From Prevotella sp. (GTDB lineage: Bacteria > Bacteroidota > Bacteroidia > Bacteroidales > Bacteroidaceae), in NCBI GenBank assembly GCA_015060555.1, contig SUYG01000013.1:9174-73173 (forward strand): a DNA stretch of 64,000 nucleotides. The letters are read 5' to 3'. Below, in pieces: positions 15,233 through 58,795 of the stretch. The notes beneath the pieces were generated by a model. That model saw nothing but the letters and a program-made list of their open reading frames with translations, searched no databases and had not been told where the DNA came from. The first letter of the stretch is position 1. Each line of letters starts with the position of its first letter. The position numbers and the translations under genes were made by a program.

Positions 15233-15447
15233 ACGCCCTATTGGGTATTCGCGTTTTCTCCATACCTTTTCGGCCGAAACCCTATACCCTTTTGGCCGAT
15301 ACCCTATACCGTGTTGGGCGGATCACCTTGGTGATCCACTCAGAAGAGCAAGGTCTTCAAACTGAAGGAGCAAGGTCTTCTGGTCGAAAGAGTAAGCTCT
15401 TCTGGTCGAAAGAGTAAGCTCTTCAGGCAGAAGGACAAGACCTTAAA
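15233..15447. repeat. composite intergenic repeat module, copy 1
   Basis: Direct repeat GGCCGA(A/T)ACCCTATACC x2. Palindrome GGATCACCTTGGTGATCC at 15320-15337. The core CCACTCAGAAGAGCAAGGTCTTCAA..GGAGCAAGGTCTT is shared with 35741-35805. This is followed by the 22-nt unit CTTCTGGTCGAAAGAGTAAGCT repeated exactly at 15377-15398 and 15399-15420. Confidence 0.85.
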
Positions 15448-15452
15448 GAAAG

Positions 15453-16022: not shown

Positions 16023-17558
16023 TTACTTCAACGCTTTATTAAACATGTAGTAAACCTCGTTGTTGCGGAGGGTCTGCTTGAAGTCGGCGATGTTGGTCTG
16101 CTTGTTGATCTTGACATACTCGATGCCGCAGATCTCAGCGAAGTCCTCCCAGTACTCCTCGGTGATGTCGTAGGAGAAGGCGCTGTGGTGTGTGCCGCCA
16201 GCGAGAATCCATGCAGCTGCACCAATCTCGAAGGTGGGCTGGGGGATCCACAGTGCGCTGGCCACGGGCAGCTTGGGCATGGGCTTCGGCTCGATGCACT
16301 CAACCTCCTGAGAGATGAGACGGAAGCGGTTGCCGAGATCCACAACGGTAGCTTTCAGGCCGGCACCGGTCTTGGAGGTGAACACGAGGCGGGCGGTCTG
16401 CTGCTTGCGGATACCGATGCCGAGGAAGTGTACCTCGAGCTTGGGCTTGTCCTCGACAGCAATCAGCGGGCAAACCTCAAGCATGTGGCTCTGCAGGCAG
16501 GAGCTGCGGTCGCCGGCGAAGTTGAGGGTGTAGTCCTCGAGGAAGGAGCAGCCAGTGGGCATGCCCTGCTGGATGACCCAAAGGGTGCGATAGAGGCAGG
16601 CGGTCTTCCAGTCGCCCTCAGCACCGAAACCATAGCCCTCAGCCATCAGACGCTGGCTGGCAAGGCCGGGGATTTGGTCGAAGCCGCAGAAGTTGGGATC
16701 GTCGATGTCGGCATCGCCGAGGTCGTCGAAGTTGGTGGTGAAGGCTGTAGCGCCCTCATCCTTCAGCACACGACGCAGTGCAATCTCAGCCTTGGCAGCG
16801 TTGTGTACCTTCTCCCAATATACCTTTTCGCCGCTCTCATCAATCTTGATGGTGTAAAGCTTCTTGTACTCCTCGACAAGGGCGTCAGCCTCGGCGTCGG
16901 TGACCTTCTTGTAGTAGTCCATGAGGCTGCTGACGGGGTAGTAATCGACGTGGTAGCCGAGGCGCTGCTCGAACTCTACGCGGTCGCCGTCGGTGACAGC
17001 CACGTTGTTCATGTTCATACCGAACATGAGGCAGCGTACGTTGTGTGCATCAGCAACGCCGGCAGCTACGCGAGCCCACACGGCAATCTGCTTCTGTGCC
17101 TTCTCATCCTTCCAGTAGCCGCAAACGACCTTGCGAGCCACGCGCATGCGGGTGCAGATGTGTCCGAATTCGATGTCGCCGTGAGCGCTCTGGTTGAGGT
17201 TCATGAAATCCATGTCGATTTCACCCCAAGGAATCTCGGCGTTGTACTGTGAGTGGAAGTGCAGGAGAGGCTTCTGCAGCTGCTGCAGGCCCTTGATCCA
17301 CATCTTAGCGGGTGAGAAGGTGTGCATCCATGTGATGATACCTACGCACTTCTCGTCGTTGTTGGCAGCGAGCATCACCTGCTCCACTTCCTTGCTGGAG
17401 TTGGCTGTGCCCTTATAAACAATTTTCACGGGGATGTTGCCGCTCTTATTGAGGCCTTCAACCATTTCCTTGGAGTGAGCGTCAACAGCAATGACTGCGT
17501 CACCTCCGTAGAGCAACTGTGCACCAGTTACCCACCAAATCTCAAAGTTTTCAAACAT
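16023..17558 (-). CDS. araA: L-arabinose isomerase
   Basis: 511 aa. The N-terminus FEIWWVTGAQLLYGGDAV and overall length are typical of AraA. It is clustered with araD. Confidence 0.92.
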   Translation of the reverse strand: MFENFEIWWVTGAQLLYGGDAVIAVDAHSKEMVEGLNKSGNIPVKIVYKGTANSSKEVEQVMLAANNDEKCVGIITWMHTFSPAKMWIKGLQQLQKPLLHFHSQYNAEIPWGEIDMDFMNLNQSAHGDIEFGHICTRMRVARKVVCGYWKDEKAQKQIAVWARVAAGVADAHNVRCLMFGMNMNNVAVTDGDRVEFEQRLGYHVDYYPVSSLMDYYKKVTDAEADALVEEYKKLYTIKIDESGEKVYWEKVHNAAKAEIALRRVLKDEGATAFTTNFDDLGDADIDDPNFCGFDQIPGLASQRLMAEGYGFGAEGDWKTACLYRTLWVIQQGMPTGCSFLEDYTLNFAGDRSSCLQSHMLEVCPLIAVEDKPKLEVHFLGIGIRKQQTARLVFTSKTGAGLKATVVDLGNRFRLISQEVECIEPKPMPKLPVASALWIPQPTFEIGAAAWILAGGTHHSAFSYDITEEYWEDFAEICGIEYVKINKQTNIADFKQTLRNNEVYYMFNKALK

Positions 17559-17566
17559 TTTTTAGT

Positions 17567-17620
17567 GGCCCCTCTCTTATCCCCCACAGGGGGGAAGACC
17601 AATAGGGACAATGGGTCTAT
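17567..17620 (-). promoter_or_regulatory. conserved structured leader element, copy A (ends 8 nt upstream of the araA ATG)
   Basis: Sense sequence: ATAGACCCATTGTCCCTATTGGTCTTCCCCCCTGTGGGGGATAAGAGAGGGGCC. It is near-identical in architecture to 21833-21885 and 26059-26111. Proposed pairings are AGACC/GGTCT, C5/G5, and loop CCCT with downstream AGGG. Confidence 0.7.
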
Positions 17621-17635
17621 AGTTAGTAAATAAGA

Positions 17636-17998
17636 TTAATTGTTCGTTTGTTTCTTTCTCAATTCCAGTCTCACACAGTAGCTCCACGTTCCGAAACCGT
17701 ACCACCCACTCGACCAGCTTTCGCCTAGACGGAGAGTGATGTCCTGACGGTAATGCTTGTCGGTGTAGAGATGCACGGCCTCATCGTCGGCACTTAGGAA
17801 ATAGAATGTATATGACTGGTAGCCGCCATAGCTGGCGGAGCCCTTTTCCGGCTGCCATGCCGGCGAATTATTCTCGATGAGTTTACTGACGTCACAAGTA
17901 TAGACATCGATGCCGCCCATGTCACGTCCGGTCACCTCACATTCTTTAGAGCTTTCTTCCTTGAGGACAAGCTCGTAGTCGTTCCAATTTACCGCCAT
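17636..17998 (-). CDS. hypothetical cytoplasmic protein, paralog 1 (ara operon)
   Basis: I chose the start MAVNWNDYELV. There is no signal peptide. It shares Y.G.Y.(Y/F)TF ... GE(S/W)W(S/T)SGWY..G.W with the adjacent ORF. It lies between araD and araA on the same strand. Confidence 0.6.
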   Translation of the reverse strand: MAVNWNDYELVLKEESSKECEVTGRDMGGIDVYTCDVSKLIENNSPAWQPEKGSASYGGYQSYTFYFLSADDEAVHLYTDKHYRQDITLRLGESWSSGWYGFGTWSYCVRLELRKKQTNN

Positions 17999-18021
17999 AG
18001 TTGCATATTGTGTTAATAACA

Positions 18022-18447
18022 TTAAATCAGTCCGTTGCGTACTGCGTATTCCCACGCGTCATGGTCTATCTGCTGCATGGTGCGGACGCCATCGGGCAGC
18101 TCGCTCACGGGATAAGTGGCCTCTATGGTGCTGATAGTGATGCGGTGTCGCCACTCGCCCTCTTCATACCAGCCCGATGTCCACTCGCCAAAGATGTCGA
18201 GCTGGACTTCCTCTTCACCATCGCGCTCCACCTTGAGCCTTACAATGTTACCGGCACCGAGGAACGTGAAACGATAGCTGCCAGCGTAAGGCGAATGGTA
18301 GAAGCCGCCGTGGCGGTTCCACTCAATCTGCTGCCCATCCTTGAGGTCTTTGATGTGCAGTCGCCAGTCATCGTTGGTGATGGCTTCGTCTTTATGCTGT
18401 TTCTCGGCGAAGAGGCGCAGATCCCATTCTTTCCACTTTGTGTCCAT
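18022..18447 (-). CDS. hypothetical cytoplasmic protein, paralog 2 (ara operon)
   Basis: I chose the start MDTKWKEWDLRLF; the track start at 18498 is also possible. It contains PYAGSYRFTF...FGEWTSGWYEEGEW, which matches paralog 1. Confidence 0.6.
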   Translation of the reverse strand: MDTKWKEWDLRLFAEKQHKDEAITNDDWRLHIKDLKDGQQIEWNRHGGFYHSPYAGSYRFTFLGAGNIVRLKVERDGEEEVQLDIFGEWTSGWYEEGEWRHRITISTIEATYPVSELPDGVRTMQQIDHDAWEYAVRNGLI

Positions 18448-18498
18448 AATTGTTCCGGTTTTAAAATTATGCTTTGTTTGAGCGTGCCCGTTATGCAA

Positions 18499-19209: not shown

Positions 19210-19222
19210 GGGATGTTTTTAT

Positions 19223-19323
19223 AGTTTAAAGTTTATGGTATAAAGTTTAAAGAGTTCAAGATACTTAAAAGTCCAAAAAGGTTTAAGAAGTTCAAGAGGT
19301 CCTAGAGCGTAAGAACCTCTAGG
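19223..19323 (-). repeat. (CTTTAAAC/CTTGAAC)n array plus CCTAGAG/CTCTAGG hairpin between the NUDIX regulator gene and araD
   Basis: Sense sequence: CCTAGAGGTTCTTACGCTCTAGG ACCTCTTGAACTTCTTAAACC...CTTGAACTCTTTAAACTTTATACCATAAACTTTAAACTATAAAAACATCCC-ATG. The same repeat type occurs at 40781-40830 and 59700-59750. Confidence 0.75.
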
Positions 19324-20102: not shown

Positions 20103-21827
20103 TTACCAGAAGTACCAGTAGAAGCAAGCGCAAAGACCCACGACAACAAGCGTGCCGATGATGTCGAAGGCGCCCCAGCTCTCCTTGATGGATTTCTTGA
20201 AGTCGGGTGTGAAGGTGATGGCATCAATCTGTTCCTGGCTGGGAGCCGGTGTGAACAGGGATACTGCATAGATGAACACGAGCAGGAACACCAGCAGCCA
20301 GCACTCAAAGACAAGCCAGTTGGTCTGCCAGAACCAAGCGGTGTTCTCCCAGAAGGCTCCTTCCATAGTGGCACGACCTGTGTCGGTGATGACATTGGTG
20401 ACCAGACGCAGCATTCCGATGAGGAAGCCAACAATCATGGTGTATTCACCAGCCTTCGGCGTTACCTTCTTACTGAGAATACCACATGCGAAGACAACAA
20501 CCATAGCAGGAGCCAGCAGCGACTGGATACCCTGGAGATAGTTGTACAGTGTGTCCATGCCCATCATAATAGGCAGCCATGCAAAGCCGAGAATCACGAC
20601 AACGACAGTGGCGATACGGCCTGTGAGCACATAGTGAGCCTCGCTCATGCCCTGCTTCAAAGGCTTGTAGAAATCTTCTACAAAGAGGGTGGCACAGCTG
20701 TTGAAGAAAGCTGCCAGAGAAGCAACGAGGGCGCAAATGAAACCGATGGTGACGATACCCTTGATACCTGCGGGCAACACCTGTTGAACCATAATGGCAA
20801 AGGCTGCGTCGGTCTCGCTCAGGTCGAAGGTTCCCTTCTCAGCCAGCGCAGCGGCTATCATACCAGGAATGAGGAACATGAAACAAGGCAGCACCTTGAA
20901 GAAGCCGGCTGCAATGGTACCGCGACGAGCACGCTTCATCACCTCTGCATTGTCCTCACCAGGGACCTGACCGAGCACACGCTGAACAATGTGCTGGTCG
21001 GTGCACCAGTACCAGAAACCGATGATGCAGGCACCCAGGAACACCACGAAGCCCGGGTACTCCTGATACATGGAGTCGCCTTCTTCCCAGTGAAACATGT
21101 GTGTGGTGCCGTAGCCATTGTTGAGCTGGCCGCAGTAGTCCATCATGCTGGTCCAACCTTCGACGATGCTGCCGCCGCCCAGGGTTGCGAGACCTAGGAA
21201 CAGAACCAGGAAGGAACCGATAATGAGAATCGGGGTCTGGATGGAGGAGAGTGTCATCACACCCTTCATGCCACCGAAAACAGTGAACACGGCGGTGATG
21301 AGAATCAAGCCAATAGCACCGTACCAGAAGTTAAGGCCCCAAAGGTACTTGAAGAAGATACCACCCGTCAAGGCTGTCACACTCACCTTTGTAAGGATGT
21401 AAGCCACCAATGTAATAACGGAGAGCCAGTAGCCTGTACGCTTGGTGTAACGGAACTTGAGGAAGTCAGGCATCGTAATAATTTTCCCCATCTTGTTGAT
21501 AAGAAACTGATAGAAGGGAACAAAGAGCCAGCCGAGGATGAGGATCATCCAACCCTGCATCTCCCAGTGGGCCATTCCCACACCGCTCTTTGCACCTGTT
21601 CCGGCGAGACCTACGAGGTGCTCGGAACCGATGTTGGCAGCAAAGATTGCCATACCAATGACGTACCAAGGTTCGCCCTTACCAAAGAGGTAAGCACTTG
21701 AGTCTTCGCCTTTCTGAGCTTTCTTGTCTTTGACGATAGCATGATATACAGCCCATATCACGCCAACGAGGCCGATGGCGAGAACCGCCCAGTCGAGCCA
21801 AATGAATTCAGTGGAATTCCAATTCAT
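20103..21827 (-). CDS. sodium:solute symporter family (SGLT-like) sugar transporter
   Basis: 574 aa with about 14 hydrophobic segments and SSS-family sequence character (GAANIGSEHLVGLAGTG, RRGTIAAGFFK). Confidence 0.85.
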   Translation of the reverse strand: MNWNSTEFIWLDWAVLAIGLVGVIWAVYHAIVKDKKAQKGEDSSAYLFGKGEPWYVIGMAIFAANIGSEHLVGLAGTGAKSGVGMAHWEMQGWMILILGWLFVPFYQFLINKMGKIITMPDFLKFRYTKRTGYWLSVITLVAYILTKVSVTALTGGIFFKYLWGLNFWYGAIGLILITAVFTVFGGMKGVMTLSSIQTPILIIGSFLVLFLGLATLGGGSIVEGWTSMMDYCGQLNNGYGTTHMFHWEEGDSMYQEYPGFVVFLGACIIGFWYWCTDQHIVQRVLGQVPGEDNAEVMKRARRGTIAAGFFKVLPCFMFLIPGMIAAALAEKGTFDLSETDAAFAIMVQQVLPAGIKGIVTIGFICALVASLAAFFNSCATLFVEDFYKPLKQGMSEAHYVLTGRIATVVVVILGFAWLPIMMGMDTLYNYLQGIQSLLAPAMVVVFACGILSKKVTPKAGEYTMIVGFLIGMLRLVTNVITDTGRATMEGAFWENTAWFWQTNWLVFECWLLVFLLVFIYAVSLFTPAPSQEQIDAITFTPDFKKSIKESWGAFDIIGTLVVVGLCACFYWYFW

Positions 21828-21832
21828 AAATG

Positions 21833-21885
21833 GAGCCCCCCTCTTATCCCCAAAAGGGGAAGACCATATAGGGGTTTGGGTCTAT
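21833..21885 (-). promoter_or_regulatory. conserved structured leader element, copy B (ends 5 nt upstream of the SSS transporter ATG)
   Basis: Sense sequence: ATAGACCCAAACCCCTATATGGTCTTCCCCTTTTGGGGATAAGAGGGGGGCTC. Confidence 0.7.
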
Positions 21886-21955
21886 TGTTACTAATAATTA
21901 TTTTTCGTTTTTGAGTAGCACGACTTCTACCTTAGGGAAGGGTAGGAGGGGAGCA

Positions 21956-24889: not shown

Positions 24890-26050
24890 TTAACAGAGCT
24901 TGCGAGCACCGTCGCCGATGACAACATCAATGATCACGGGTTCCTTGCCAAACTTAGCCTTGAACTGCTCCTTGGCAGCCTTCACAAAACTGTCATAGTA
25001 GTGCTCGTCAACGAGGTTGATGGTGCAGCCGCCGAAACCGCCGCCCATGATACGTGAACCAGTCACGCCCTGCTCCTTGGCGATGTCATTGAGGAAGTCG
25101 AGTTCTTCGCAGCTGACCTCGTATTCCTTGCTCAGGCCATAGTGAGTTTCGTACATCATTTTACCGACGGTCTCGTAGTCACCCTTCTCCAGAGCGTCGC
25201 AGACAGCCAACACGCGCTCGCGCTCGCCGATGACGTAGCGTGCACGCTTGTAGTCCTCTTCACTAATCTTTGCCTTCACCTCATCGAGCTGCTCATAGCT
25301 GGCATCGCGCAGGCTCTCCACCTCGGGATGAAGCTCGTGGATAGCGGCTGCAGCGCGCTCGCAGCTGAGACGACGGTCGTTGTAGGGTGAGCCTACGAGG
25401 GCGTGCTTCACATTACTGTTCACCAGCACGAGCTTGTAGCCCTTCGGGTTCCAGGGGAAGTAAGCCACTTCGCCGCTGCGGCAGTCCATGCGCATGAGAT
25501 GGCCTGCCTTTCCGAGGCAGGAGATAGCTTGGTCCATGATACCGCAGTTCACGCCGATGTACTTGTGCTCGGTACGCTGTCCAACCTTTGCCAGCTCCAA
25601 GCGGTCAATCTTGTTATCACCAAAGAGGTCGTTCAAGCCGAATGCAAAGCAGCTTTCGAGAGCGGCAGAAGAGCTCATGCCTGCGCCAAGGGGCACATCA
25701 CCAGCAAATGCAGCGTTGAAACCCTCCACGGGAACACCCAGCGCCATCATCTCGCGGCATACGCCGAAGATGTAGCGAGCCCAAGTAGCCTTGGGGCCTG
25801 CGGGATCGTCGAGAGAGAACTGCACGCGGTCCTTCAGGTCAATAGAGTAAACATCCACATTGCGAGAGCCGTTGGGCTTGATTTCAGCAATCATGCCCTG
25901 CTCCACGGCGCCAGGGAACACAAAGCCGTTATTATAGTCAGTGTGCTCACCGATGAGGTTGATACGGCCGGGAGCAGCATAAACACTTCCTGTGCTGCCA
26001 TCGAAATGCTTGATGAAGCGGCTGCGGACATCTTCAATTGTAAGTTTCAT
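24890..26050 (-). CDS. galK: galactokinase
   Basis: 386 aa. GalK signature GRINLIGEHTDYNNGFVFP and the GHMP kinase motif PLGAGMSSSAAL. Confidence 0.93.
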   Translation of the reverse strand: MKLTIEDVRSRFIKHFDGSTGSVYAAPGRINLIGEHTDYNNGFVFPGAVEQGMIAEIKPNGSRNVDVYSIDLKDRVQFSLDDPAGPKATWARYIFGVCREMMALGVPVEGFNAAFAGDVPLGAGMSSSAALESCFAFGLNDLFGDNKIDRLELAKVGQRTEHKYIGVNCGIMDQAISCLGKAGHLMRMDCRSGEVAYFPWNPKGYKLVLVNSNVKHALVGSPYNDRRLSCERAAAAIHELHPEVESLRDASYEQLDEVKAKISEEDYKRARYVIGERERVLAVCDALEKGDYETVGKMMYETHYGLSKEYEVSCEELDFLNDIAKEQGVTGSRIMGGGFGGCTINLVDEHYYDSFVKAAKEQFKAKFGKEPVIIDVVIGDGARKLC

Positions 26051-26058
26051 AGTTTTAA

Positions 26059-26111
26059 GGGCCCCTCTCTTATCCCCCGAGGGGGAAGACCAAATAGGGG
26101 CTTGGGTCTTT
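26059..26111 (-). promoter_or_regulatory. conserved structured leader element, copy C (ends 8 nt upstream of the galK ATG)
   Basis: Sense sequence: AAAGACCCAAGCCCCTATTTGGTCTTCCCCCTCGGGGGATAAGAGAGGGGCCC. Confidence 0.7.
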
Positions 26112-35617: not shown

Positions 35618-35967
35618 CTCTCATTCCCTCAAACTTGTTGTATATCAAGCCATAGAGGCTGAGAGAATGCTGAGAGAAAGCTGAGGGAATGAGGGAAATG
35701 GTCGAAACCCCTATGGTAAAAACGGCTACACCCTATAGGGCGTAGGGTGGATCACCATGGTGGCCCACTCAGAAGAGCATGGTCTTCAAGGTGGAGGAGC
35801 AAGGTCTTGACCCTATTGCATGAAGGACTTGACCCTATTGCATGAAGGACTTGACCTTATTGCATGAAGGACTTGACCTTGTTACTTTTCCTCATTCTCT
35901 CAGCCTTTCCCTCAGCATTCTCTCATCCCTTATGAGTTGACAATCAACAAGTATGAGGGAATGAGGG
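35618..35967. mobile_element. MITE-like non-coding element (composite repeat module, copy 2) with ~80-bp terminal inverted repeats
   Basis: Left arm CTCATTCCCTCAAACTTGTTG...GAGAGAATGCTGAGAGAAAGCTGAGGGAATGAGGGAAA. The reverse complement of the right arm is CCCTCATTCCCTCATACTTGTTG...GAGAGAATGCTGAGGGAAAGGCTGAGAGAATGAGGAAAA. The interior holds the shared core GGATCACCATGGTGGCCCACTCAGAAGAGCATGGTCTTCAA..GGAGCAAGGTCTT. It also holds the 22-nt unit CTTGACCCTATTGCATGAAGGA in 3 full copies plus 1 partial copy (35806-35885). It has no ORF. Confidence 0.75.
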
Positions 35968-58569: not shown

Positions 58570-58714
58570 GAGGACGCGAGTGGTGAGGGCGGTGGATTAG
58601 TATCCCGACTCGATTTGCCTACGCTCTCACGAGTTAGGTGCTGCTTTTGCCCGCTGCAGCCCTCTTCTGCGCAGCTTGTCTTCGCTTTAAAATGGGGGCA
58701 AACCCTTCATTTTA

Positions 58715-58795
58715 TAAGGTCAAGGCCTTCACGCCGTAAGGCCAAGGTCTTCACGCCGTAAGGCCAAGGCCTTCTGAGAGGAGAGTGGGAAGGGA
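58715..58795. repeat. composite repeat module, copy 3 (inverted orientation): 22-nt tandem repeats plus a CTGAGAGG...GTGGGAAGG core remnant
   Basis: CAAGGCCTTCACGCCGTAAGGC (58721-58742) and CAAGGTCTTCACGCCGTAAGGC (58743-58764), followed by the partial CAAGGCCTTCTGAGAGG. The reverse complement CCCACTCTCCTCTCAGAAGG resembles the CCACTCAGAAG core of copies 1 and 2. Confidence 0.7.

Follow-up and report, generated by a model that had tools for sequence, protein, structure and literature searches.

A portable start-codon-proximal RNA pseudoknot family in rumen and gut Prevotellaceae

Among the closest described systems are the mycobacterial interspersed repetitive units (MIRUs), which are 40-100-bp direct tandem units whose small ORFs overlap the neighbouring stop and start codons, with translational coupling. 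MIRUs, reportedly described by Supply et al. 1997, resemble the Prevotellaceae element reported here in that both are short dispersed repeats, intercistronic in operons, oriented as their flanking genes and variably present between strains. However, the Prevotellaceae element is a single GC-rich pseudoknot with upstream stop codons 7-234 nt away and no consistent ORF. REP/BIME, ERIC and Correia sequences, along with other small palindromic repeats and MITEs, offer a second comparison, as they too are small, structured, dispersed, variable, co-transcribed and able to affect mRNA fate, and are built of modular hairpins with inverted ends. Families of the REP/BIME type are usually high-copy (hundreds per genome for REP/BIME itself) and found in both orientations, at 3' ends, between convergent genes or at arbitrary intergenic sites, whereas the Prevotellaceae element is low-copy, strictly in sense, fixed in its spacing to the start codon, and a pseudoknot rather than a simple palindrome. 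REPs carry a GTAG or CGTC head (PMC3733652); the element consensus contains neither. In REPs the head adjoins a simple palindrome, and a RAYT transposase is associated with them. A MITE-like presence/absence polymorphism between relatives was observed both in araD-araA spacers and for a coding insertion in Ugd.

The Rickettsia palindromic elements (RPEs), reportedly described by Ogata et al. 2000, are comparable in that a sister form of our family, ~90 nt long, sits in frame in conserved protein genes and adds a peptide of ~30 aa. This comparison reaches into another phylum, and the Prevotellaceae element is much shorter. Moreover, the copies in the 64-kb stretch of Prevotella sp. DNA analysed here (the window) represent a non-coding, start-codon-proximal form, which to our knowledge has no counterpart among RPEs. 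In architecture, the element recalls the preQ1-II and SAM-II/V riboswitches, which likewise form a compact H-type pseudoknot with a 3' purine tract at the Shine-Dalgarno (SD) position, paired with a pyrimidine loop just 5' of the start codon. Those riboswitches are ligand-specific, serve one pathway, are conserved at orthologous genes and operate in SD-using bacteria; in contrast, the Prevotellaceae element precedes unrelated genes, is optional, occurs in a lineage with SD-ignoring ribosomes and has no match in Rfam.

Three window copies and their fold

The window contains three copies of the element, each ~53 nt long, on the minus strand and 5-8 nt upstream of the ATG of araA, of a sodium:solute symporter (SSS) gene and of galK. 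Rereading of the sequence bore out the coordinates, strand and sequences given for them in the original prediction. With filters off, the covariance model returned exactly three matches in the window (73-78 bits; 73.1, 77.6 and 75.1 for copies A, B and C) and nothing else above 8 bits, and the chance expectation in shuffled windows was ~0 matches for the 28-nt 5' pattern and 0.18 for the 17-nt 3' pattern, which argues for one conserved element rather than chance similarity. The downstream genes, all on the minus strand, are araA (16023..17558; L-arabinose isomerase, 511 aa; Pfam AraA_N, AraA_central and Arabinose_Iso_C), the symporter gene (20103..21827; 574 aa; Pfam SSF) and galK (24890..26050; galactokinase, 386 aa; Pfam GalKase_gal_bdg and GHMP_kinases_N/C). 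The same layout, including araA, emerged when genes were called independently on conspecific contigs (L199-L202).

On the mRNA strand, each copy folds into an H-type pseudoknot in which AGACC and GGUCU form P1, and P3 arises between the P1 loop, GCCCCU, and an (A/G)GGGGC tract further downstream; the long loop holds P2, a C-run/G-run hairpin, together with a conserved purine linker, AUAAGAG, or its variant UUAGAG. Copy A (17567-17620, minus strand) lies 15 nt after the upstream stop codon and ends 8 nt before the araA ATG (17558-17556). Its P1 is formed by AGACC (17618-17614) and GGTCT (17600-17596), its P3 by GTCCCT (17609-17604) and AGGGGC (17573-17568), and its P2 by UCCCCC/GGGGGA (17595-17590 and 17585-17580) around a CUGU loop, followed by the linker UAAGAG (17579-17574). 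Copy B (21833-21885, minus strand) ends 5 nt before the symporter ATG (21827-21825), with P1 at 21883-21879 (AGACC) and 21865-21861 (GGTCT), P3 pairing (A)CCCCU (21875-21870) with GGGGG (21840-21836), and P2 pairing CCCC (21859-21856) with GGGG (21851-21848) around a UUUU loop. The 70 nt that separate it from the stop codon of a Sugar_tr MFS gene (21886..21955, minus strand) start with GCUCCCCUC and a small hairpin (CUACC...GGUAG) and end in the AU-rich flank AAUAAUUAUUAGUAACAAU. Tentatively, judging from its sequence, the start of this spacer resembles a reverse-orientation module (GCCCCCC, linker, hairpin) found just after the upstream stop codons of other filled loci. Copy C (26059-26111, minus strand) lies 61 nt after the upstream stop codon and 8 nt before the galK ATG (26050-26048); AAGACC (26110-26105) and GGUCUU (26091-26086) form P1, GCCCCU (26101-26096) and AGGGGC (26066-26061) form P3, and CCCC (26085-26082) and GGGG (26077-26074) form P2. 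In the window copies, P3 and P2 together give a nested fold with a free energy of -18 to -22 kcal/mol, which is contained in the nested minimum-free-energy structures of copy A (-20.4 kcal/mol) and copy C (-22.5 kcal/mol). The thermodynamic z-scores of the element were ~0, and C and G runs pair in shuffled sequences too; hence, stability alone is no evidence for the fold.

Covariation, on the other hand, supported the pairings that had been proposed for P1, P2 and P3, all of which showed compensatory changes once divergent copies were included. Among 44 covariance-model matches, whose alignment cells are not phylogenetically independent (L028 and L055 are near-duplicates), two-sided changes were detected in 14 of 17 pairs, including five of the six in P3, even though P3 had been left out of the search model. 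None of 500 shuffles reached any of five covariation measures, and sliding the pairing in control alignments lowered the paired fraction from 90.7% to at most 73%. Compensatory variants include ACGCC/GGCGU and CCUCCCC/GGGGAGG in the arg operon, UGACC/GGUCA and CCUUU/AAAGG in L127, GCUCCU/AGGAGC in L159 and GUCCCU/AGGGAC in L061. In the 79 exact-core copies, covariation was not significant because the search pattern fixes 21 nt and the remainder barely varies. Within P3, G·U cells outnumbered A·C cells by 71 to 5 in one alignment (A2) and by 22 to 4 in another (A4), an excess showing that selection acts on this helix in the mRNA strand. The covariation of P1 and P3, together with this sense-strand bias, supports assignment to the H-type RNA pseudoknots. 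The covariation could nevertheless reflect selection on the propagating master copy of a mobile family rather than function at each locus.

The same data bear on the possibility of a DNA-level operator, in which the inverted repeats AGACC/GGTCT and C-run/G-run would be sites for a dimeric regulator; the window cluster does contain an NrtR/AraR-like regulator gene, recognized by Pfam. We regard this possibility as very unlikely, given that the compensatory changes keep pairing while altering the sequence, the preponderance of G·U over A·C cells singles out one RNA strand, P3 pairing is meaningless for duplex DNA, and the downstream genes of the family are unrelated. Several other candidates were rejected. 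P2 is followed by AUAAGAG and the G-run, with no U-run, which speaks against an intrinsic terminator and against a promoter/terminator reading alike. Internal AUGs vary in both occurrence and frame, contrary to an internal uORF or translational coupling. A self-cleaving ribozyme with a pistol-like P1-loop pseudoknot was also considered and seems unlikely, as the topology differs and Rfam gave no match.

Family distribution, placement and optional presence

A scan of GTDB genomes with a 21-nt search pattern yielded more than 118 exact-core matches, nearly all in Prevotellaceae MAGs. In all 87 exact-core copies that have P1, and are thus full-length, the element is in sense orientation and an ATG follows 11-18 nt after GAUAAGAG, with the end of the P3 3' strand 3-12 nt (mode 6-8) from the ATG; the fixed spacing and consistent orientation first noticed in the window thus held for the whole full-length set. 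At least 68 of 79 assessable copies have a same-strand gene ending 7-234 nt upstream, with the longest ORF taken as the neighbour, which amounts to a MIRU-like intercistronic, operon-oriented placement. None of the full-length copies lies between convergent genes or after a terminator. The apparent restriction to sugar genes, by contrast, is true only inside the window. Family members also precede genes for GH57, amt, GSIII glutamine synthetase, argG, argC, argD, groEL, acrB, yebC, acyl-CoA dehydrogenase, a frdB-like protein, dNK, ugd and others, in addition to araA, SSS and galK genes. The original prediction held that copies in both orientations, at arbitrary distances from genes of unrelated function, would mark a plain REP- or BIME-like repeat. 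The functions proved to be unrelated, but orientation and distance are fixed, and the sense placement of all 87 full-length copies just 5' of an ATG, together with the low copy number, sets the family apart from generic REP/BIME sequences. Rfam 15 gave no match at gathering thresholds in the whole window and none overlapping any copy at E<=10 between 15000 and 29000, in agreement with the earlier impression that no named RNA motif corresponds to the element, and our literature searches, which covered its sequence, the encoded peptide, Prevotella MITEs and REPs and surveys of structured RNAs, turned up no account of it. It is well supported that the three copies are members of an undescribed, dispersed family of ~55-60-nt G/C-run RNA pseudoknots in rumen and gut Prevotellaceae, and equally that copying has brought the element before many unrelated genes, as a portable cassette rather than a gene-specific regulator.

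The araA locus provided a view of how optional the element is. In a sample of 75 araD-araA spacers chosen without regard to the element, it was present in seven and absent from 68, and filled and empty loci were interleaved, with the same spacer filled or empty among loci whose araA genes are 88-92% identical. Such sparse and interleaved occupancy shows that the element is optional, and patchy presence at orthologous spacers implies that the host gene has no need of it. Presence/absence between close relatives points to a portable start-codon-proximal element and not to a sugar-sensing riboswitch. A riboswitch for sugars or sugar phosphates of arabinose and galactose catabolism, the reading implied by the ligand probing that was initially proposed, would suit the three window genes (araA, a sugar symporter gene and galK) and the resemblance of a pseudoknot with a conserved unpaired linker to small pseudoknot riboswitches. 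It is already contradicted by the gene distribution, as the downstream genes of the family also include ones for nitrogen and amino-acid metabolism, chaperones, efflux, nucleotides and fermentation. The 68 araA orthologues without the element, the lack of an Rfam match and the occurrence of the module inside ORFs weigh against it as well. Taken together, the diverse downstream genes, the occupancy of seven among 75 araA loci and the in-ORF 3' module argue for a copied portable element, and sugar sensing appears highly improbable.

The 3' module of the element also occurs inside genes, as in-frame insertions of ~30 aa in Ugd, ArgC and many large ORFs. This in-ORF form is ~90 nt long and palindromic, consisting of an inverted module, a spacer and the module; its inverted ends, GGCCCCCUC...GAGGGGGCC, each have an adjacent hairpin. 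The 3' half of the window element is the same module, while its left end is reduced to the GCCCCU within the P1 loop. Ugd proteins of relatives with and without the insertion measure 457-477 aa and 437-439 aa, respectively. As a separate observation, gene callers at times extend ORFs through the element (P0008; argC).

These features bring to mind a purely selfish MITE- or REP-like repeat, that is, non-autonomous mobile DNA whose hairpins serve transposition and which persists at start codons because so compact and self-contained a fold does almost no harm when inserted there, with no function for the host. The polymorphism of the araD-araA spacers, the unrelated downstream genes, the tandem arrays of units at L053 and L073, the variant features common to copies within one genome (two copies each in L121 and L027, and the arg operon of L028/L055), and the ~90-nt coding insertions with their inverted partner modules all agree with such an origin. 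Nevertheless, a neutral repeat should accumulate between convergent genes or after terminators, where no copy was seen, and it would hardly be confined to one orientation and a 10-nt window of ATG distance in 87 of 87 full-length copies. Copy number is low as well, with three copies in 64 kb and 10 matches in 750 kb of related metagenomic DNA. At orthologous loci, the core has diverged less than synonymous sites (71% identity versus 49% at 4-fold sites among the element-blind araA copies), and gene-specific subtypes are common to different species, with a P1-loop similarity of 0.76 between copies that precede the same gene in different genomes and of 0.67 between copies that precede different genes. 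The G·U bias likewise speaks for selection on the mRNA strand. The viral contigs scanned had no match to the element, and the filled and empty araD-araA spacers were too diverged, with extra modules inside, for insertion boundaries or a target-site duplication to be defined. On balance, we consider a purely selfish repeat doubtful, though a serious contender.

A possible gate on translation initiation

Bacteroidia initiate translation without SD pairing and need A-rich, unstructured leaders. Empty araA leaders conform to this rule: G accounts for 0-8% of the bases at each position, and A reaches 84% at -13. In filled leaders, G rises to 54-91% between -9 and -16, and A falls to 4-9% at -12/-13. 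The element thus puts a paired G-tract in place of the A-rich, G-free leader typical of Bacteroidia, where initiation has been found to require little structure and A residues at -3, -6, -12 and -13 (PMC13000457). In Prevotella bryantii, nothing changes when an SD sequence is added, removed or lengthened, while structures of -5.2 and -11.1 kcal/mol over the SD region lower protein levels ~8-fold and >100-fold, respectively, and a -9 kcal/mol hairpin at -21 is not inhibitory (PMC3155529). By analogy with these reporter data, occlusion of the initiation region by the element is plausible.

Our preferred reading, to which we assign a probability of roughly 45%, is that of a cis-RNA cassette, spread by copying and constrained in its structure, by which translation initiation is gated or throttled; we infer its mechanism by extrapolating from artificial hairpins in one Prevotella species. 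The folded pseudoknot would replace the A-rich, G-free, unstructured leader needed by Bacteroidia ribosomes and would tie up positions of about -7 to -16, the SD-like GAGGGGG tract, in a GC helix whose other strand is the anti-SD-like loop CCCCU, so that initiation at the downstream cistron may be throttled or gated. If P3 opened, the remaining hairpins would end near -20, a position harmless in P. bryantii, which would make P3 a natural on/off element. P3 might be opened by temperature, by a protein or helicase or by a global small molecule, or might open through simple equilibrium. Genes such as araA, galK and groEL, and all cistrons of an arg operon, need to be expressed, which fits poorly with a strong constitutive block in front of them, unless the gate opens readily.

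Other roles at the same position were also considered. The element could act as a positive initiation module, its G-tract (GAGGGGG, or AGGAGG in the arg-operon variant) serving as a real SD sequence for bS21-less ribosomes with a free anti-SD, or its pseudoknot recruiting S1 or the 30S subunit in the manner of a small IRES. The G-tract is indeed located at -9 to -16, variants read UUAGGAGGGGG and GGGGGAGG, and the partner of the tract is CCUCC-like, as in classical SD-sequestering switches; in Flavobacterium johnsoniae, bS21-free ribosomes translate the SD-bearing rpsU (PMC9976891, PMC13000453). This role nonetheless seems quite improbable, as SD changes in P. bryantii were without effect (PMC3155529), no more than the four nucleotides GAGG are available in the canonical form and these are paired, and conservation of the module extends to copies within ORFs, where an SD role is impossible. 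The element might instead be an intercistronic cassette for mRNA processing or stability, with an endonuclease cutting the AU-rich flank (UAAUAACUAA) 5' of P1, the pseudoknot forming a protective 5' end of the downstream cistron, and, at some loci, a reverse C/G hairpin after the upstream stop codon shielding the upstream 3' end, thereby uncoupling the stabilities of operon segments. The mostly intercistronic placement between co-directional genes, the conserved AU-rich flank directly 5' of P1, the lack of a U-run after P2, which makes it no terminator, and the reverse modules directly after the araD stop codon in L121 and L122, with similar sequence after the Sugar_tr stop codon before copy B, are consistent with such processing. 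However, AAUAAC-type AU-rich sequence is also typical of empty leaders and so may not be part of the element, no reverse module precedes copy A, and the tight 3-12-nt spacing to the ATG is left unexplained; a processing cassette is accordingly rather unlikely in our view.

The translational gate can also be conceived more broadly, although we hold this broader version to be improbable. A self-propagating gate of the SD-blind Bacteroidia would be a mobile cassette that equips any gene downstream of its landing site with an SD-like G-tract, restrained within a pseudoknot by a loop resembling an anti-SD. It would place translation of that gene under a global cue, be it temperature, a second messenger, a helicase or RNA-binding protein, or the pool of bS21-free ribosomes with liberated anti-SD, while its module would also spread into coding sequences as tolerated in-frame peptides.

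Whatever its role, a conserved and very stable G-rich pseudoknot over positions -7 to -16 of dozens of central-metabolism genes runs counter to the initiation rules of Bacteroidia, and the element provides a natural handle on how the ribosomes of these bacteria cope with, or exploit, structure. Annotation is affected too, since gene callers sometimes carry ORFs through it. The in-frame insertions in Ugd and ArgC may extend to Bacteroidota the phenomenon, known from Rickettsia, of selfish DNA residing within protein-coding genes. Should the element prove to gate translation, bacteria that dominate the rumen and gut would possess a portable module for post-transcriptional control, and Prevotella genetics would gain a ready-made part.

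Position and downstream genes of the full-length element

The three minus-strand copies of the element lie at 17567-17620 (copy A), 21833-21885 (copy B) and 26059-26111 (copy C), ending 8, 5 and 8 nt before the ATG of araA, a sodium:solute symporter gene and galK, respectively, and following the stop codon of the upstream same-strand ORF by 15, 70 and 61 nt, so that the sequences and the intercistronic setting described in the original prediction were found unchanged. Exactly these three copies were recovered from the 64 kb by a covariance model run with filters off, essentially no partial element patterns being expected in the window by chance, and the same gene layout surrounded them in independent gene calls on same-species contigs. 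Rfam 15 returned no match at gathering scores, nor at E<=10 across 15-29 kb, in agreement with the proposal that no named RNA motif was involved, and no description of the element was found in Rfam or in the literature searched.

Scanning one genome per GTDB species for the exact pattern GGTCTTCCCC-N2-10-GGGGATAAGAG yielded at least 126 matches in at least 118 stretches, those listed being nearly all from Prevotellaceae MAGs of rumen or gut origin (Prevotella, Alloprevotella and RGIG MAGs labelled Bacteroidaceae), with a few evident chance matches (Hahella, Methanoregula, a Kiruna bin). The matches listed fall into a full-length form and an in-ORF form. At least 87 of them are built in full like the window copies, running from an AU-rich flank through AGACC, 2-4 nt, GCCCCU, 3-5 nt, GGUCUU, C4-6, a loop, G4-6, AUAAGAG and GGGGGC to a short spacer and the ATG. 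All 87 full-length copies among the matches listed are in sense orientation with the ATG 11-18 nt past GAUAAGAG, which leaves 3-12 nt, most often 6-8 nt, between the end of the P3 3' strand and the start codon. The downstream ORFs start at normal N-termini of known protein families, and in 68 or more of the 79 copies that could be assessed a same-strand gene stops 7-234 nt upstream (median ~55 nt). The fixed orientation and start-codon spacing that had been proposed are real.

The downstream products among the matches listed are L-arabinose isomerase (araA, 27 copies), GH57 (15), SSS symporter, galactokinase (galK) and a 57-aa HTH protein (6 each), ammonium transporter (amt, 5), acyl-CoA dehydrogenase (4), AcrB, YebC, an aminotransferase, an FrdB-like Fe-S protein, a fucose-isomerase-like protein and dNK (2 each), and GSIII glutamine synthetase, GroEL, a GT4/GT5 glycosyltransferase (starch-synthase domain), an MFS transporter and an α/β-hydrolase-like (UPF0227) protein (1 each). 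The covariance model added divergent copies before argG, a neighbouring ORF, argC and argD in one arg operon (stretches L028/L055), amt (L016), galK and an MFS gene (L027), ugd (L032/L062/L076) and others. The restriction to sugar genes is an accident of this window, since the same element also precedes amt, GSIII, GroEL, AcrB, YebC and arg-operon genes, and sugar-specific regulation is not supported by these unrelated genes across genomes. A sugar riboswitch is contradicted by the same distribution and is exceedingly improbable; the fold resembles that of SD-sequestering pseudoknot riboswitches, but the element lacks their gene association and orthology.

Gain and loss in araA spacers and insertion into coding sequences

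A metagenome protein scan with the window AraA gave 80 loci at 71-96% identity, 75 of them with usable upstream regions; because the scan was protein-based, this set was blind to the element. Seven upstream regions contained it (L120, L121, L122, L127, L132, L140, L159), and the other 68 were plain AU-rich spacers. The spacer to the araA ATG measures 34-50 nt in empty versus 80-249 nt in filled loci, six of the seven filled loci share the araD-like upstream gene of the empty ones (L132 has a different gene), and the closest araA relatives of filled loci (88-92% nucleotide identity) are empty. The element is not a fixed araA feature. Only 10 covariance-model matches occurred in 750 kb of these loci, so the family is low-copy. 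Copies within a genome have variant features in common (two nearly identical copies in L121, a GGUCCU/GAAAGAG pair in L027, ACGCC/GGCGU in the arg operon), and P1-loop subtypes show an identity of 0.76 before the same gene in different genomes, against 0.67 before different genes. Together with the patchy araA spacers, these patterns indicate that the element is copied within genomes, gained and lost per spacer, and long retained vertically.

Immediately after the upstream stop, a reverse-orientation module (GCCCCCC, linker, C-run/G-run hairpin) occurs at L121:4857-4905, L122:4881-4910 and, tentatively, window 21925-21955 (minus), so that such a filled spacer runs from the stop through the reverse module, an AU-rich stretch and the pseudoknot element to the ATG. 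This arrangement suggests either a composite element or a 3'-end hairpin. A processing or stability cassette, cut in the AU-rich flank and protected at its 5' end by the pseudoknot, is supported by these stop-adjacent modules but leaves the ATG spacing unexplained, and we regard it as quite unlikely.

Several other features were observed around these spacers. Between the araD-like aldolase gene and araA, window 17636-18498 (minus) holds two small ORFs (~141 aa and 120-128 aa) with no Pfam match, conserved on same-species contigs L199-L202; in most related metagenome loci araD lies immediately before araA. AT-rich short tandem repeats occupy promoter-like spacers at window 19218-19300 and 40777-40838 (TTTAAAG/TTTATAGTATAAAG types, 7-14-nt periods) and, outside the window, upstream of araA in L130, L148, L149 and L170 (CAATTATCAATTATCAACTATCAATT types); one lies between an NrtR/AraR-like regulator gene and an araD-like gene. 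Three intergenic arrays of 22-nt tandem units (window 15262-15448, 35730-35883, 58696-58776), each unit holding a small inverted repeat (e.g. GAAAGAGTAAGCTCTTCTGGTC), are a repeat family distinct from the pseudoknot element; two of these sites have a common ~45-nt leader before the array (15301-15379 vs 35730-35808, 85% identical). Two or three units of the element itself stand in tandem (60-70-nt period) directly before the start codon at L053:2374-2468 and L073:5799-5978; in the Alloprevotella variant, the 3' end, GGGGUCUU, repeats the GGUCUU of P1.

The remaining listed matches lack P1 and do not adjoin start codons; ~25 lie within long ORFs, mostly on the opposite strand. Their frame is always open, encoding (A)PLLSPQGGKT...PLGE...EGA or, in the other orientation, GSSPLGGIRG / G(D)KRGA. 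Here an inverted partner, made up of GGCCCCCUC, a linker and a hairpin, lies ~20 nt upstream of the 3' module (C-run hairpin, AUAA, GAGGGGGCC), and the two form a palindromic element of ~90 nt that adds ~30 residues in frame; C-run hairpin, AUAAGAG and GGGGGCC are shared with the window form. Protein comparison shows these elements to be insertions in bona fide enzymes. Ugd of L062 is longer by ~30 residues than the K. pneumoniae enzyme of solved structure (query 62-99 vs chain 92-99). Close homologues measure 437-439 aa without and 457-477 aa with the insert, which varies in length and is flanked by KYLA and L(T/F)ATLDG. A comparison of the same kind gave ~40 extra residues in ArgC of L055. 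Insertions occur in ugd (L062:5468-5528, L032:7506-7577, L076:915-974), argC (L055:3129-3206, L028:130-208) and many further large ORFs (L017, L063, L086, L097, L115, L048). The coding form behaves like Rickettsia palindromic elements and, by this analogy, would be an RPE-like phenomenon in Bacteroidota. One gene caller ran a Ugd ORF (P0008) through the element. At the front of argC (L055:2858-4021, minus), a variant is followed by no canonical start codon and shares the frame of an ATG upstream of it (MTNIHNAQTTNTPNGSSPLGGTRGGLKVGILG...); its linker, ACACGAG, is missing the usual UAA/UAG, and the variant may be translated as an N-terminal extension.

RNA structure and selection on the mRNA strand

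Covariation was not significant on the pattern-selected alignment, in which the helices hardly vary. Across 44 covariance-model hits including divergent copies, two-sided changes, in cells that are phylogenetically dependent, affected 14 of the 17 proposed pairs; none of 500 column shuffles attained the observed value on any of five covariation measures, and sliding the 3' partners by 1-3 columns reduced pairing from 90.7% to 40-73%. P3 was outside the search model, and its covarying pairs (5/6) therefore provide an independent test. Variants comprise ACGCC/GGCGU, AACCC/GGGUU and UGACC/GGUCA for P1 (consensus AGACC/GGUCU), CCUUU/AAAGG, CUCCC/GGGAG and CCUCCCC/GGGGAGG for P2 (CCCCC/GGGGG), and GCUCCU/AGGAGC, GUCCCU/AGGGAC and CCUCC/GGAGG for P3 (GCCCCU/AGGGGC). 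Part of the signal could stem from selection on the source copies of a copied family. The P3+P2 folding energy (-18 to -22 kcal/mol) did not surpass that of shuffles, as runs of C and G pair in any case. The originally predicted P1/P2/P3 model is supported by these sequence comparisons. A DNA operator is contradicted by the covariation pattern and scarcely credible.

In P3, sense-strand G·U cells exceeded A·C, the equivalent of G·U for a helix on the other strand, by 71 vs 5 and 22 vs 4, indicating selection of the helix on the mRNA strand. Core identity in the element-blind araA set was 71%, compared with 49% at four-fold degenerate sites of adjacent araA codons. A purely selfish MITE- or REP-like repeat would account for the patchiness, the unrelated host genes, the units in tandem (L053, L073) and the insertions into coding sequence, but it leaves unexplained why 87/87 full-length copies among the matches listed have the sense orientation and the start-codon spacing, why the element is absent from neutral sites, why it is better conserved than synonymous sites and why G·U is favoured on the mRNA strand; we consider it unlikely. 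The element is small, structured, dispersed and co-transcribed like REP, ERIC, Correia and MITE sequences, but departs from them in copy number, orientation and position, as anticipated by the view that it was no plain REP. Mycobacterial MIRUs are alike in position and orientation, but their coupling ORFs are missing here. We class the element as a dispersed structured repeat acting, or at least residing, in cis on mRNAs.

The initiation region and a possible role of P3

Bacteroidia initiation depends on A at -3, -6, -12 and -13 and on low structure (PMC13000457). Empty araA leaders are of this expected type: G makes up 0-8% at each position between -30 and -1, and A makes up 80% at -3, 85% at -6 and 84% at -13. 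Leaders that contain the element retain A at -3 (69%) and have G at 54-91% from -9 to -16, with A at only 4-9% at -12/-13. In Prevotella bryantii, the SD sequence is without effect, structures of -5.2 and -11.1 kcal/mol over the SD region lower protein ~8-fold and >100-fold, respectively, and a hairpin of -9 kcal/mol placed at -21 causes no inhibition (PMC3155529). A positive SD-like or IRES-like role in initiation is disfavoured by this SD-blindness and by conservation of the same module inside ORFs, making it very unlikely.

When formed, P3 would cover precisely the sensitive zone with a GC helix; when open, the remaining P1 and P2 hairpins would end at about -20, in the harmless zone. From this geometry and the artificial P. 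bryantii constructs, we tentatively infer, with a probability of about 0.45, that the cassette acts through P3 to throttle or gate translation initiation at the downstream cistron. The unusual property of the element is its strict start-codon-proximal placement in an SD-blind phylum.
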